Program-made: the position numbers and the translations under genes
From: Phycisphaerae bacterium
Lineage (GTDB): Bacteria; Planctomycetota; Phycisphaerae; UBA1845; Fen-1342
DNA: 64,000 bases
NCBI GenBank assembly: GCA_963675745.2
Contig: CAXXWX010000026.1
Coordinates: forward strand, 448,001 to 512,000
Reading direction: 5' to 3'
Shown here: positions 51,447 to 59,054 of the stretch, piece by piece
Position numbering within the stretch: the first letter of the stretch is position 1
Layout of the letters: the number at the start of each line of letters is the position of its first letter
Notes under the pieces: model-generated
Databases searched by the model: none
Seen by the model: the letters and a program-made list of their open reading frames with translations, nothing else
What the model was told of the DNA's origin: nothing

Positions 51447-52850
51447 ATGTCCGATAATCGAGCAGACGTGGTGCTGCTCACGACAGACGAAACCGTCATT
51501 TCCGCGGTGATCCGCAGGCAGCCGCCCGGCGCCCGCCTCATCACGCTGGCACCTGGGCATCTCGAGGACCAGACGGTCGGTCCCTGCCTCGAAACCGAGG
51601 CCTGCTGGGTCGATCTCGACGACACCCGCCCGGTTGATCTGCCTGACGCTCATGCGTACGTCTTCTTCCATTCCGACGACAGCGTGACCCGCGAAACGCA
51701 TCCCAGGGGTATCCTTGTCCGCAAGCCCCTCACCGACACCGCGCTGGATGTGCTCTGGGCACAGGCCACGTTGCCGGCACGCCGCGTTGATGAGCGCAGC
51801 CTGCCGGAGTGGATCGTCGAGTTTCATGAACAGCACCTGCCGGAGTTCTGCCGTCGGTGCGTCAAAAGCCTGCCGCAGCACCTCGGCTACCGCCGCGTGT
51901 CGCTGTATCTGCACGAACCGGAGCAGGATCTGTTAAGGCTGGCCGAGTGCAACCACCCGGAGCGTGTGGCCCTGGCTGTCCCCATGACGACCACGCCCGC
52001 GCCGCTGATGGTGGATGTCGTGCGCAGTGGGCAGATGTTGATTTCCAGCGATGTTGATGCTGAATTCAACATACGCCAGTTGCCGACGCGCGGCCGCTGC
52101 CGGCGTGATGACGATCGAGCCTGCCTGATAGCGCCGCTGTACAGCAATGGCGAATTGCAGGGTGTGCTCAATTTCAGCGAACGCGCCGATCGCGAAGCCG
52201 GCCGGAAATCGCTGCCCCTCGACGCGATCTTCCGCTTCCTCGGCCGCGCGCTTCAGCACGCCCGCGATCATGATCGCGCTCGAACCGAGGCGACCATGGA
52301 CGGGCTCACCGGGCTCTTTAATTACCGCTGGATCGTCGAGACGCTCGAACGTGAAATCAGGCGTGCCCAACGGTACGGCACGCAAGTCTCGATCGTGCTG
52401 CTCGACATCGACGGACTGAAGGCGATCAACGACACGTGGGGCCACGCCGCCGGCGACGATCTGCTACGCCATGTATCCGGCAAAATCACGAGCGAGCTGC
52501 GGCGGTTTGACTCGGCGGCACGTATCGGAGGGGATGAGTTCGTAATCCTGCTGCCCTCGTCCGACCTGCCCGGCGCCCGGAGAGTCGGTGAGCGCGTACG
52601 CACCTCCATACGTTCAGATCCGGCCATGTTCCGCGGCGAGCCACTGGCGGTGACAACCAGTGTCGGCGCAGCGGAATGGCGTGCCCCCTGGACCGCCAGA
52701 GCTCTGATCGAGGCCGCGGACCAGGCCATGTACGCCGCCAAACGCAGCGGTGGCGATGCCTGCGCGTGCGACGTAGATCTCCCCGCGTCAGACCCACAAG
52801 CGGCCCTATCGGCGGCGCGCCTGCCCAGCGCGCGCGGACACACGCATTAG
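51447..52850 (+). CDS. GAF-GGDEF diguanylate cyclase
   Basis: DGLTGLFN, DIDGLKAINDTWGHAAGD, RxxD I-site RRFD, GGDEF, ADQAMYAAK. Confidence 0.92.
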   Translation: MSDNRADVVLLTTDETVISAVIRRQPPGARLITLAPGHLEDQTVGPCLETEACWVDLDDTRPVDLPDAHAYVFFHSDDSVTRETHPRGILVRKPLTDTALDVLWAQATLPARRVDERSLPEWIVEFHEQHLPEFCRRCVKSLPQHLGYRRVSLYLHEPEQDLLRLAECNHPERVALAVPMTTTPAPLMVDVVRSGQMLISSDVDAEFNIRQLPTRGRCRRDDDRACLIAPLYSNGELQGVLNFSERADREAGRKSLPLDAIFRFLGRALQHARDHDRARTEATMDGLTGLFNYRWIVETLEREIRRAQRYGTQVSIVLLDIDGLKAINDTWGHAAGDDLLRHVSGKITSELRRFDSAARIGGDEFVILLPSSDLPGARRVGERVRTSIRSDPAMFRGEPLAVTTSVGAAEWRAPWTARALIEAADQAMYAAKRSGGDACACDVDLPASDPQAALSAARLPSARGHTH

Positions 52851-53228: not shown

Positions 53229-53609
53229 ATGCACTTCGAGCTTGATCCCAAGAGCGGCGTGCCGTTCTACCGGCAGATCATTGATCAAATCCAGTTCGCC
53301 ATTGCCGACGGGCGTATCGGCAGTGGTGATCGGTTGCCGACCGTCCGGCAACTCGCCGTCGAGCTCAAAATAAACCCGAACACGGTCGCGCGGGCGTATC
53401 AGGAGCTCGAAATCAAGGGCATTGTCAACACGCAGATGGGCAGTGGCACGTTCATCGGCAACGGAAAAGTCGAAATCTCGGAGATCGAGCGCAAACGCAT
53501 GCTCGACCAGATCTGCACGGAACTACTGTCACGCGCGTCCACCTACGGCTTCACGCTGGCCGAGGTGATTGCCGCTCTGCGCGAACGCGAGGAAGAACGG
53601 CCGGGATGA
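53229..53609 (+). CDS. GntR-family (YtrA subfamily) transcriptional regulator
   Basis: PFYRQI, LPTVRQLAVELKINPNTVARAYQELE, GSGTF; short C-terminus. Confidence 0.93.
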   Translation: MHFELDPKSGVPFYRQIIDQIQFAIADGRIGSGDRLPTVRQLAVELKINPNTVARAYQELEIKGIVNTQMGSGTFIGNGKVEISEIERKRMLDQICTELLSRASTYGFTLAEVIAALREREEERPG

Positions 53610-54124
53610 TCAACGCGTTCGGACATTACGACACGACACGCGGCTTGCCGCATATCCAGCCGCTCCGCTCGCGGTTGCGGCGAATGCGGCGACCAGTCCT
53701 CCAGGCGCTGCTCGTGGCGGCCGCGGGCGCAATTGTCTGGCTGAGCCGCTCCACGAATGGCACCGGGGCGGGAGAAGGTGTGCTGTCGTCGGCCGGCACA
53801 TGGCTGAGTAAACCGCAGCCTCTGTTGCCAAGGGCCATCTGTGACGGCCGCGACGAGCACCCGTCGACCACCGAAGCGAGCAGTCGCTGCAAACTGACCA
53901 TCCGCCTGCCGATGTCGGACGGTCGCACGTTTGCGGCGGTTGAGTGCAACTATGAACGGGTTTTACGAATGCCGCCGTCGGCAACCACCGACGCACCGGA
54001 ACGGGCCACCGCGAGCCACCCACGATGGGTGTGGCTGGTGTGCGCGCTCGTGCCAATTCTCCTGGCCTGCGTGCTGGTACCGGAGCCAGAGCAGCCCATC
54101 AACTCGAGGAGGCCCAAACCGTGA
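53606..54124 (+). CDS. Hypothetical membrane protein
   Basis: ATGA and GTGA overlaps with both neighbours; two hydrophobic segments. Confidence 0.5.
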   Translation: MINAFGHYDTTRGLPHIQPLRSRLRRMRRPVLQALLVAAAGAIVWLSRSTNGTGAGEGVLSSAGTWLSKPQPLLPRAICDGRDEHPSTTEASSRCKLTIRLPMSDGRTFAAVECNYERVLRMPPSATTDAPERATASHPRWVWLVCALVPILLACVLVPEPEQPINSRRPKP

Positions 54125-55269
54125 TTGAGAACACACAGAACATCTTGGGTCGTTCGCTGGAGAAATTCGCGATCAGCTCACGCGCGGATTACCGCTTCGC
54201 ACCGTTTAACGCGCTCTTGATGCTGGCAGTCATGCTGGCCGGCCTGGTGACGCACGTTATCGTGTATGAGTTCGAAGTGGCCGCGGTCATCTACGCCATC
54301 GGCGCCGCCCTCGTGCTGCTGGGGACGTTCAGAGTACACCAGATCTGGGAGAGCGTGGTGATTGGCGGCGCCATGGTGGCGCTGGCCGGTTACCTGCTGT
54401 TCGACCACCTCGGCATACCGCCCCGTGTGCTGGTCGGGTCCACCGCTCTGGCCACCATCATCGCACCTAGTATTCAAATCGCGTACCAGTGGGAGCGCGG
54501 CGTGCTCTTGCGTTTCGGGAAATTCAAGGGCATCCGGGGAGCCGGGATCTTCGCGGTCGTGCCCGTGGTCGACAAGGTGGCTCAGTTCGTCGATCAGCGC
54601 ATCCGCGTGACCGACTTCCGCGCGGAGACCACACTCACCAAGGACACGGTGCCGGTGAACGTGGACGCGATCGCCTTCTGGATGGTCTGGGACGCGGAAA
54701 AAGCCGTGCTGGAAGTCGAGGACTTCACCACGGCGGTCACGCTGTCAGCCCAGACCGCTCTGCGGGACGCAATCGGCCGAAGCGAGCTGGCGGAACTGCT
54801 GTCGCACCGGGATCGTCTGGGCAAGGAGATCCAGGAAGTGCTGGACGCCAAGACGAACCCCTGGGGCATCACGGCCCAGTCCGTCGAGATCCGCGACATC
54901 ATCATTCCCAAGGCGCTCGAAGACGCCATGAGCAAACAGGCGCAGTCCGAGCGCGAGCGCCAATCGCGCATCATCCTCGGTACGGCGGAGACGGAGATTG
55001 CCGAGAAGTTCGCCAAGGCGTCGGAAGCCTACCGCGATAACCCCGTCGCCCTGCACTTGCGTGCGATGAACATGGTTTACGAAGGCCTCAAGAAGAAAGG
55101 CTCGATGGTCATCGTGCCGTCCACGGCCGTCGAGACGATGGGCCTCGGTGCGCTGGGCGGCCTGACAGCGTTGGGGCAACCACGCGCCGACATGTCCGCG
55201 GAGGCCGCACTGAGTGAGCCCGACCGACCGGAGGCCGGTCCCACAGACACTTCGGCCACGCAGCCTTAG
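54121..55269 (+). CDS. SPFH/stomatin (slipin) family protein with extra N-terminal TM helices
   Basis: ERGVLLRFGK, TKDTVPVNVDA, AQTALRDAIG, VEIRDI, PVALHLR. Confidence 0.9.
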   Translation: MIENTQNILGRSLEKFAISSRADYRFAPFNALLMLAVMLAGLVTHVIVYEFEVAAVIYAIGAALVLLGTFRVHQIWESVVIGGAMVALAGYLLFDHLGIPPRVLVGSTALATIIAPSIQIAYQWERGVLLRFGKFKGIRGAGIFAVVPVVDKVAQFVDQRIRVTDFRAETTLTKDTVPVNVDAIAFWMVWDAEKAVLEVEDFTTAVTLSAQTALRDAIGRSELAELLSHRDRLGKEIQEVLDAKTNPWGITAQSVEIRDIIIPKALEDAMSKQAQSERERQSRIILGTAETEIAEKFAKASEAYRDNPVALHLRAMNMVYEGLKKKGSMVIVPSTAVETMGLGALGGLTALGQPRADMSAEAALSEPDRPEAGPTDTSATQP

Positions 55270-55285: not shown

Positions 55286-55355
55286 GCGGCACCGGCTTTC
55301 AACTGTGGCACTGGTTTTCAACCAGTGCGTATCACCGGTTGAAAACCGGTGCCAC
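55286..55355. repeat. REP class D inverted doublet (possible bidirectional terminator)
   Basis: GTGGCACTGGTTTTCAACCAGTG (55305-55327) and CACCGGTTGAAAACCGGTGCCAC (55333-55355), partial third copy at 55286. Confidence 0.75.
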
Positions 55356-55374
55356 ATGGGTTTTGGGATAGCTT

Positions 55375-56184
55375 CTACTGTGTGATGCGGTGCAGGTGCG
55401 CGACGCTGTCGATGCGGCTGAGTAATTCGCGGTCGGCAATCGGCCGCTCAGACGCCGCCGGAACGAACAACGTGAACCCGGCGTGCAGCACGTGGGCGTA
55501 GTCGCAAATGTCGCGCAGCGCGAAACGATGCACGGTCGATGTCATCAGCGGGTGCGGCGTCGAGTAAACCGCCGAGACGACGTGCTCGGGCGGGTAATAG
55601 CGCAGCAGGTGTGTCCGCAGGCGCTCGAGGCGAACCGGTTTCGAGACGCGTGTCGTGTGCAGACACGTTTCCACGGTGCCAATCTGCCAGATGAGGGCCG
55701 GAACGTCGGGTTGCAACGGCCGACGCCGCAAGAGCAGGTCCGTGGCCTCGTACATCTGTAGCCCCGTGACACACGGATCGATCATCAACTCCGCGAACAA
55801 GCTGTCCATCGCCGAGATGCCCGGTAACACGCGAACCGTAAGATTCAGCAGCCCGGCCATGTCGCGGATCAGGAAGGGTGCGTAAACGCCGACGATCGGG
55901 TGCCCGTGCATCGCAAATGTGACCGGCGGGTGATCCAGGGCTGCGTCAATGACACGCGCGGCCATGTGGTGATAGGCGCCCAGCCGGTGCTCGCCGTCCC
56001 GATAGCTCGTCTCGAAGAGCCCCGTAACGCGCGGGCATAGGGTCTCCAGGAACGGACGCGTCGCCACGCCCGTATCCACGTAGAGCACTTCATTTGAACG
56101 GCGGATGGCCCGCTCGGTCTGGCGTGTGATCTGGTCGACGTTCAGGACGCCGAGCCCGACGATGTAGATATCAACCACGGTCAT
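55375..56184 (-). CDS. Borosin-type alpha-N-methyltransferase (OphMA/SonM-like, tetrapyrrole methylase fold)
   Basis: IVGLG..QIT, SY..GEHR...Y..MA, HGHP (cf. YGHP), LPGISAMDSLFAELMIDP, EATDLL, IWQIG, YYPPEH, TLFVP. Confidence 0.85.
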   Translation of the reverse strand: MTVVDIYIVGLGVLNVDQITRQTERAIRRSNEVLYVDTGVATRPFLETLCPRVTGLFETSYRDGEHRLGAYHHMAARVIDAALDHPPVTFAMHGHPIVGVYAPFLIRDMAGLLNLTVRVLPGISAMDSLFAELMIDPCVTGLQMYEATDLLLRRRPLQPDVPALIWQIGTVETCLHTTRVSKPVRLERLRTHLLRYYPPEHVVSAVYSTPHPLMTSTVHRFALRDICDYAHVLHAGFTLFVPAASERPIADRELLSRIDSVAHLHRITQ

Positions 56185-56845
56185 CCCCCTCTTGCAGGGC
56201 GTGGATCAACCCGAGCAACTTCTCGTACCGCCCACCGGCATCGCTGGCACGGACGGCCCGCGCGGCTGCCTTCGCCGCCGCCGAATCGACATGATGATTC
56301 CACGGTGGATTCGCCGCAGCCGGCGGCTTCGGCTTGTCCGAAACGGCGTCGAGCGGCTCGATCGCGGCGGAATACGCCACCGTCAGCCCCTCCTCCCCTG
56401 AGGCGACGACCGTGGGCGTGAAGCGGACAAGCCACTCGATCTCCGGCGGTGCCCCGCTGCTCGGCTGGTCAGCGCGCGCATCGCGATCTGCGGGCCATGT
56501 GTGCAGAGAAGCCGCGTACGCGACATTTGCGCCGGCCCCCGGCGTCTGGGCCACCTGCGGAGCCAGTCGCAGCAGCAGCTTGACTTCGGGCAACTCTGGC
56601 GACGGCGCAGCATCCGCCTCCTGAGATTCGCGCTGTGGCGAGTCTTCCGCCGCCGCGTGACCATGCCCCACCGCGCCCCCCAGCAGGCCCAGCAGACGCT
56701 CGTCACGGCGGATCAGGATGTCCCGCTCTTGCTCGCTGAGGTCATAGCCTTCGAACGCCCGCTCCGGATCGGTCAGCGCCAACTCACAAAACGCATCGTC
56801 CAGCGCCGTCCGAACCAGAAAGTCAGCCACCGACTTGCCCGCCAT
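56171..56845 (-). CDS. Putative split-borosin precursor (LigA/BBD-like N-terminal domain plus repeated core region)
   Basis: FLVRTALDDAF..LALTDPERAFEGYDLSEQERDIL..RD; GAGG RBS; overlaps methyltransferase start by 14 nt; 224 aa. Confidence 0.72.
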   Translation of the reverse strand: MAGKSVADFLVRTALDDAFCELALTDPERAFEGYDLSEQERDILIRRDERLLGLLGGAVGHGHAAAEDSPQRESQEADAAPSPELPEVKLLLRLAPQVAQTPGAGANVAYAASLHTWPADRDARADQPSSGAPPEIEWLVRFTPTVVASGEEGLTVAYSAAIEPLDAVSDKPKPPAAANPPWNHHVDSAAAKAAARAVRASDAGGRYEKLLGLIHALQEGDDRG

Positions 56846-57094: not shown

Positions 57095-57339
57095 CGCCCC
57101 GGAGGGGCTTGGGCAAATAGCCACGGGTGGAGCGCAGCGTAACCCGTGGATAGTAACGATCCCCAATGAACCTCCGCCCTGAAAGGGCGGCGGAGGGACA
57201 GCCGATTGGAGTACCGCCGGGTTCCTCGGCAACTCCGTTCCACCGCCCTTCCAGGGCGGGATGCGCGACAAGAACACACCCGGTCCACGGGTTGCGCTGC
57301 GCTCCACCCGTGGTTACACGCCCACGCCCCATTGGGGCG
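57095..57339. mobile_element. Transposase-free REPIN/MITE of the 958-1632 family
   Basis: GCCCCGGAGGGGC...CCACGGGTGGAGCGCAGCGTAACCCGTGG...CGCCCTGAAAGGGCG, about 54 nt spacer, then the inverted set ending CGCCCCATTGGGGCG. Confidence 0.82.
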
Positions 57340-58894: not shown

Positions 58895-58965
58895 CTGGGG
58901 ATAGAGGATTCGAACCTCTACTAACTGATCCAGAGTCAGTCGTGCTACCATTACACCAATCCCCA
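58895..58965 (-). tRNA. tRNA-Gln(CTG)
   Basis: TGGGGAT/ATCCCCA acceptor stem, anticodon arm ACTGA-CTCTGGA-TCAGT, T arm AGAGG-TTCGAAT-CCTCT. Confidence 0.95.
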
Positions 58966-58983
58966 CGACCAGAACAGTTTACG

Positions 58984-59054
58984 GCCGGGATAGAGGATTC
59001 GAACCTCTACTAACTGATCCAGAGTCAGTCGTGCTACCATTACACCAATCCCCA
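58984..59054 (-). pseudogene. Duplicated tRNA-Gln(CTG) with disrupted 3' acceptor strand
   Basis: Identical to 58895-58965 except the 3' end reads ATCCCGGC instead of ATCCCCAG. Confidence 0.7.

Follow-up and report, generated by a model that had tools for sequence, protein, structure and literature searches.

A probable split-borosin-type gene pair in a planctomycete genome, with a partner protein predicted to carry duplicated beta-hairpins

Two overlapping minus-strand genes within a 64,000-nucleotide stretch of a planctomycete genome (the whole of which is referred to here as the window) are best explained as a split-borosin-type cassette, in which a free backbone methyltransferase would methylate the protein encoded directly upstream of it, and we consider this explanation a fairly probable one. 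The pair would act like a split borosin and its membership in that family is probable; the defining chemistry is a prediction, and one of the signature residues is replaced.

The gene pair

The frame of the methyltransferase (55375..56184, minus strand; 269 aa as read), a borosin-type SAM-dependent backbone alpha-N-methyltransferase of the TP_methylase fold, is overlapped at its start by the gene of the partner, a putative precursor (56171..56845, minus strand; 224 aa), just as an earlier note made from the sequence of the window had described, and the two lie in different frames separated by a stop. To judge from a GAGGGGG site 6 nt ahead of it, and from the GTG or ATG that relatives have there, translation of the methyltransferase probably begins at the GTG at 56178, which would give a 267-aa protein and an 8-nt overlap with the partner; residue numbers follow the 269-aa reading frame of 55375-56184, not the 267-aa start. 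Contigs of two sequencing runs on one sample, probably the source sample and thus not independent, span the gene overlap, and a promoter search of the locus gave no convincing candidate.

Below the convergent 3' ends lies a palindromic repeat (55304..55356, unstranded), which is not locus-specific, the genome holding about 25 copies of it (with both arms searched, blastn gave up to 49 hits), and a second dispersed inverted repeat with 56-nt arms lies upstream of the partner gene (57095..57339, unstranded; about 40 matches genome-wide). The genome belongs to Planctomycetota, as had been supposed, and probably to Phycisphaerae; within it, the partner is the only match of a profile of the borosin-binding domain (BBD), and the methyltransferase is the only TP_methylase found.

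The methyltransferase and its family

The borosin motifs that had been read from the enzyme are present in order (G10/G12, QIT, Y61/R67/Y71, HGHP, PGISAMD, EAT, WQIG and TLFVP); the "xGHP" of the earlier note is there as well, but its wording hides that the borosin tyrosine is a histidine here. The stretch aligned with the DCLFAD motif reads DSLFAE. The proposed borosin-type assignment agrees with a PDB sequence search in which 25 of 25 matches were borosin methyltransferases (E 4e-20 for dbOphM to 2e-15, with SonM at E 7e-16), and with the clade profile (61 rows), which reaches E 3e-44 and scores dbOphM at 155 bits, SonM at 122 bits and one YabN-like domain at 50 bits. The predicted structure (pLDDT 91) is closest in fold to MroMA (Z 18.4) and SonM (Z 18.1), tetrapyrrole methylases reaching 13.2 at most, and the top rows listed by Foldseek were all borosins; the rmsd of 17 Å on SonM, and of 12-17 Å to nearly all two-domain matches, is probably due to how a monomer model places the domains. 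Identity to SonM is about 26%, and to OphMA 25-26% by structure alignment.

Residues Y61, R67, Y71, E146, W166 and Q167 are kept, and sequence alignment equates Y61/R67/Y71/Q167 with Y66/R72/Y76/Q172 of OphMA, so that the oxyanion-hole tyrosine pair and the catalytic arginine (Y66/Y76/R72 there) have their counterparts in Y61/Y71/R67. Over 71 rows, R67, Y71, E146 and Q167 are each conserved in 71 and Y61 in 70. The dN/dS of the enzyme gene is 0.15 over four disjoint planctomycete pairs and 0.13 over 14 disjoint Acidobacteria-type pairs; the gene is therefore under purifying selection and not decaying.

A 140-row FastTree, built from single-domain representatives with at least 215 aligned positions, places the enzyme among 113 rows that are set off from 27 "classic" ones; two of the latter were tested and match OphMA and SonM at 1e-47 to 1e-62. 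An IQ-TREE of 57 chosen rows (SonM and OphMA not in it, and no outgroup beyond the classic rows) separates the classic rows from the clade with 100/100 support and resolves an 18-row subclade at 99/99. As far as these trees go, the enzyme belongs to a clade separate from the classic rows; with its missing YGHP tyrosine and its three-part partner as well, the pair is not a SonM/SonA orthologue.

The partner protein

The partner matches 65 proteins (query included), 61 of them over at least 90% of its length, at 46-58% identity, and the named relatives are mostly from Phycisphaerae. In the model of the partner (mean pLDDT 74, pTM 0.37), disordered linkers connect a helical bundle (6-64), two beta-hairpins (88-116 and 136-164) and, towards the C-terminus, a helix pair (189-219). 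The BBD-like N-terminus that the earlier note had suggested is upheld by the fold comparison: the putative BBD (residues 5-58, a LigA/NHLP-like helical bundle; 56672..56833, minus strand), compared with 48,161 chains, has as its top four matches the SonA BBD (Z 5.7, rmsd 2.4, 51 aligned), DesB, the MroMA BBD and LigA; the scores are middling, yet all four belong to the expected family, and the domain sits on the gene adjacent to the enzyme. Residues 5-55 are also matched, weakly and short of the cut-off in each case, by Frankia_peptide (E 4e-5) and Os1348/NHLP (E 1e-6), and the N-terminus compares at 97.8% with that of natural BBD-NMT fusions.

Predicted hairpin 1 (residues 83-117; 56495..56599, minus strand), the candidate methylation region, and its duplicate, predicted hairpin 2 (residues 134-165; 56351..56446, minus strand), align with each other in hhalign at 97.6% (E 5e-12); the duplication exceeds the 99th percentile of shuffles in 61 of 61 cases, and the invariant residues of the hairpins alternate on one face. 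Among planctomycetes, dN/dS is 0.23 for the BBD, 0.29 and 0.33 for the hairpins and 0.28 for the helix pair, as against 0.60-0.97 for the linkers. As modelled within the whole partner, the middle domain has no significant Foldseek match, and its VIA scores do not exceed Z 4.0 (unrelated beta-sandwiches). The Atlas search returned nothing at 0.8 or above.

The C-terminal two-helix "follower" (residues 181-219; 56189..56305, minus strand) is conserved and common to split partners across the clade, and the pairs of the non-Tyr and Tyr-type split partners are homologous (score 26.8, shuffle maximum 12.2), single Tyr-type partners falling mostly below the threshold (1/11 above it); its profile has no PDB match under E 0.3. 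SonA is a short precursor that ends in a free core; the partner, by contrast, is 224 aa long and ends in this helix pair. Its variable part is the middle, which in different members of the clade consists of two hairpins, a single one, poly-Thr or poly-Pro; borosin cores are likewise variable.

At five loci (L014, L021, L025, L026 and L030), what separates the BBD of the partner from its helix pair is a poly-Thr, poly-Pro or PPTE-repeat stretch. At another (L082), the partner is split over two frames, with the BBD in one and the helix pair in the other, and the enzyme is intact.

Distribution and gene coupling

The pairing of the two genes is conserved: a BBD lies directly upstream in 91 of the 91 loci with enough upstream DNA, many of which are close kin and a few near-identical (of 115 loci, three duplicates and one distant type were dropped, and 20 of the remaining 111 end too close to the gene). 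Separate genes account for 82 of these loci, fusions for seven, and two are short or broken. Within the order, 10 of 279 genomes carry the pair, each with a full-length partner; none of the three other genomes of the genus does (one of which is only 68% complete), and a phylum sample of 400 genomes gave the pair in 1, besides one distant type. It is found in Acidobacteriota, Woeseiaceae, Myxococcota, Actinomycetota and Verrucomicrobiota as well; the pair is sporadic and not planctomycete-specific. In line with the earlier note, a planctomycete borosin was not seen in the literature searched, but the same pair in other phyla means that lineage is not where the novelty lies.

That the locus is a minimal one of two genes was borne out, no neighbours being conserved beyond close kin among 3,349 clustered ORFs and 46 scanned flanking ORFs of the ten planctomycete loci. 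Two of these ten have a nearby peptidase, which is encoded on the opposite strand and belongs to another family in each; the cassette is not in front of ispG in three relatives (two of the three stretches are short), and viral contigs gave one marginal 31-residue match.

Several features of the surroundings may be recorded. Facing the pair, in convergent orientation, are a GntR gene, a 172-aa ORF without a Pfam match and an SPFH gene (53229-55269 of the window). A search of three same-genus genomes did not recover the SPFH gene, and the stretch upstream of ispG may therefore be a variable region. GGDEF genes are common in borosin clusters, and a GAF-GGDEF gene (51447-52850) lies 2.5 kb downstream of the pair, with no match in related loci. 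Two tandem tRNA-Gln(CTG) genes (58895-59054), forming an 89-nt near-perfect duplication, are found 2 kb from the cassette.

Elsewhere, one Myxococcota-labelled genome (G682) holds two paralogous pairs (L141 and L142), and in another planctomycete (L033, G223) a 1,080-aa frame of different architecture encloses a distant borosin-like domain (28% identity). Cultured carriers in the wider clade include Streptacidiphilus neutrinimicus and Hamadaea tsunoensis. The broad clade includes Streptomyces and Haloarcula members, among them a locus on the Haloarcula sp. CBA1115 plasmid NZ_CP010533.1 (L130:3734-6885) with a 71-aa BBD precursor, a methyltransferase and then, directly downstream, a prolyl oligopeptidase, an arrangement that recalls OphMA/OphP and makes it a candidate archaeal, possibly cyclic, borosin.

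Fused relatives

The order BBD, core and methyltransferase in one chain (the type 0 layout) is not that of the present locus, where two frames are divided by a stop, whereas seven related loci fuse the BBD to the NMT in frame. Among the best 150 of the 50%-level representatives, 28 single-domain proteins above 240 bits have N-terminal extensions longer than 95 aa, 27 of these with a BBD match, and representatives with such long extensions are scattered over the tree; the clade includes several separate type-0-like fusions. With split and fused (type-0-like) forms side by side, it is well suited to a clean study of how fused borosins arose.

The seven loci (L076, L091, L097, L108, L109, L110 and L112) encode in-frame BBD-hairpins-NMT fusions without the helix pair and form one clade; at L097, the frame stays open for about 280 more codons on the upstream side. 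It was considered that the helix pair is lost at every fusion, as 43 of 43 Acidobacteria-type split partners have it and none of the seven fusions does; these seven, however, being one clade, count as one event, and the idea has weak support, since 13 other fusions, picked by eye, keep the pair (profile 97.8%), against three picked by eye that lack it. At the C-terminal side, the clade member P0356 carries a DUF6065 fusion (P0192 apparently the same), and P0190 and P0228 look, by eye, like fusions to a 2OG-Fe(II) oxygenase.

Proposed mechanism and product

By analogy with characterised borosins, the partner would dock on the methyltransferase via its N-terminal BBD, and a deprotonated backbone amide would attack SAM, methylation being iterative and catalysed by the Tyr61/Arg67/Tyr71 oxyanion network. 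The target would be the middle of the partner, most likely the hydrophobic strands at about 88-97, 107-116, 136-145 and 153-164, so that threading through the active site would require local opening of the hairpins. A folded follower or a second tether is the likely role of the C-terminal helix pair. What speaks against this explanation is that the strands are predicted to be paired (in the model) and are conserved like a folded domain, whereas known borosin cores bind as free peptides in an extended or helical form. The dependence of OphMA on Tyr98, the lack of any hydrophobic middle in two subclade fusions (P0189 and P0202) and the middling BBD scores count against it too.

As to the end product, the chances seem about even between peptides that housekeeping proteases excise, the Shewanella case, and an intact protein in which methylation alters the beta-sheet pairing. 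Duplicated units between Pro-rich linkers recall multi-core precursors and hence peptides, while the one-face conservation of the hairpins and the folded follower point the other way. The earlier note had suggested, for a locus with no adjacent protease, that the product may be a modified protein; the absence of a protease does not favour this, as the son cluster, which has no protease either, still yields a released 16-mer, shewanellamide A (PMC10549244). The idea itself is kept on another ground, namely that the modelled hairpins look folded and are under selection.

A bolder version, which we regard as unlikely, is that a folded protein, in place of small peptides, has become what this borosin subfamily modifies: the enzyme, with its rebuilt substrate pocket, would grip its partner at both ends, by BBD leader and helical follower, and methylate the duplicated hairpin strands, the removal of backbone hydrogen bonds serving as a structural switch. 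If true, it would provide a natural backbone methyltransferase for beta-structured substrates, and enzymatic backbone N-methylation acting on beta-hairpin strands or a folded protein, beyond free peptides, would matter for peptide engineering.

The same hairpins, predicted to be folded, with invariant residues alternating on one face and selected like the BBD, would also suit a partner that is not a substrate at all: an adaptor or activator, held to the enzyme by its BBD and C-terminal helices, whose hairpin domain recruits another cellular protein or peptide for backbone methylation. Such a role, for which the subclade fusions P0189 and P0202, having no hydrophobic and thus no core-like middle, and the activation of SonM in trans by a BBD towards a free peptide (PMC11751858) can be cited, seems improbable to us, as no third gene is conserved, the alternating conserved hydrophobic residues equally fit the i/i+2 methylation of SonA, and the same slot holds plain low-complexity cores in the wider clade.

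A rebuilt pocket without the YGHP tyrosine

His93 of the enzyme occupies the position of Tyr98 in OphMA and Y93 in SonM, and the YGHP signature is accordingly incomplete. The replacement is a property of the whole subclade, in which the tyrosine is found in 0 of 43 rows (His in 21, Gln in 13, Ser in 4, Pro in 2, others in 3); of the classic rows 26 of 27 have it, and of the remaining rows 62 of 70. According to the alignment, the i-2 pocket Ile44/Tyr63/Tyr98 of OphMA has become Thr38/Phe57/His93, a remodelling that would suit a different substrate register, and Phe104 of OphMA is Gly99 here, a position that would correspond, by spacing, to F99, the "bottom lock" Phe of SonM; the Phe is kept in 10 of the 43 subclade rows, Gly or Ala being found in most.

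The same tyrosine is essential in OphMA and dispensable in SonM: OphMA Y98F and Y98A show no methylation in vivo, with Y98A more than 100-fold slower in vitro (PMC6108569), and in SonM Y93F kcat is down only about 2-fold (PMC8429565). The YGHP tyrosine is a detection signature and not class-defining chemistry.

It is nevertheless conceivable, if quite improbable, that the subclade enzyme has lost or altered backbone methylation, serving as a SAM-binding scaffold or performing a different transfer, with the complex being structural or regulatory. The tyrosine, on which OphMA depends, is after all absent from 43 of 43 subclade rows, where its position drifts (H, Q, S, P, E or T) and Gly/Ala has mostly taken the place of the adjacent Phe; what speaks against loss is that Arg67, Tyr71, Tyr61, Glu146, Gln167 and the SAM-binding Gly/PGISA motifs are all kept, that dN/dS stays at 0.13-0.15, and that SonM does without this very tyrosine.

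An enzyme of the YabN/MazG type, or a tetrapyrrole methylase of the cobalamin pathway, next to an unrelated upstream gene is hardly credible, for although the best NCBIfam match is YabN (NF052436, E 2e-16) and database names of relatives include "precorrin methylase" and "YabN", that match reaches 60 bits against a cut-off of 525 and covers only the N-terminal half of the model (positions 1-232 of 486) with no MazG domain, four classic borosin-like proteins match the same model at 46-55 bits, no other TP_methylase was found in the genome, a BBD partner is always adjacent, and the PDB matches, the clade profile (with its 50 bits for a YabN-like domain) and the fold scores all group the enzyme with borosins, on the very test that the earlier note had proposed.

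To our knowledge, all solved borosin enzymes belong to one branch, in which the YGHP tyrosine is kept; a widespread sister branch with a naturally rebuilt pocket is therefore a direct test of the need for this tyrosine, as well as of what sets the register of methylation, a matter that the borosin literature leaves unsettled.

Comparison with known systems

More than 2,500 borosin clusters have been catalogued and type 0 fusions characterised (bioRxiv 2024.01.09.574750), and internal cores as well as precursors of up to 600 aa are known (bioRxiv 2021.12.24.474128). Literature searches for borosins or backbone N-methylation in these lineages, and for borosin followers, listed no dedicated paper, in keeping with the earlier note, which knew of no characterised borosin in this lineage, though mining supplements may include these genes; the available part of the supplements of PMC8429565 has no planctomycete or acidobacterial term.

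The nearest published description may be the divergent 20-member bacterial and archaeal cluster of Imani et al. (Streptomycetales, Halobacteriales; bioRxiv 2021.12.24.474128), with a similarly low identity to OphMA (28.5% mean), which is probably this broad clade, the taxa and the identity fitting a set known by its description; its text is without the tyrosine loss, the hairpin partner or planctomycetes, and the accessible parts of PMC11395268, PMC11751858 and PMC12710340 add nothing on this cluster. The type 0 borosins SkoAM and FpeAM (bioRxiv 2024.01.09.574750) have a BBD-core-methyltransferase order that matches the gene order here and the many in-frame fusions of the clade, but they are fused whereas this locus is split, and neither name is among the 29 fused-protein-profile matches or the cluster look-ups.

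The best sequence matches (E 4e-20) are to the fused fungal type I enzymes OphMA, dbOphMA and MroMA (PDB 5N0Q, 6MJF, 7TWM; PMC6108569), which share with the present pair the equivalents of Y66/R72/Y76/Q172 and the BBD fold. They differ in that the pair is not fused, the i-2 pocket I44/Y63/Y98 corresponds to T38/F57/H93, and there is no OphP macrocyclase.

Closest in organisation is the type IV split borosin SonM/SonA of Shewanella oneidensis (PDB 7LTC, 9CGW; PMC8429565 and PMC10549244), in which, as here, a free methyltransferase of about 265 aa with the Tyr/Arg/Tyr set stands beside a BBD partner in a locus with no protease. Unlike that system, the present pair has no conserved GGDEF or efflux neighbour, carries His and Gly where SonM has Tyr93 and Phe99, and belongs to a separate clade at about 26% identity; and where SonA is a protein of about 71 aa with a C-terminal core, the partner described here is 224 aa long, with a duplicated predicted hairpin and a helical follower.
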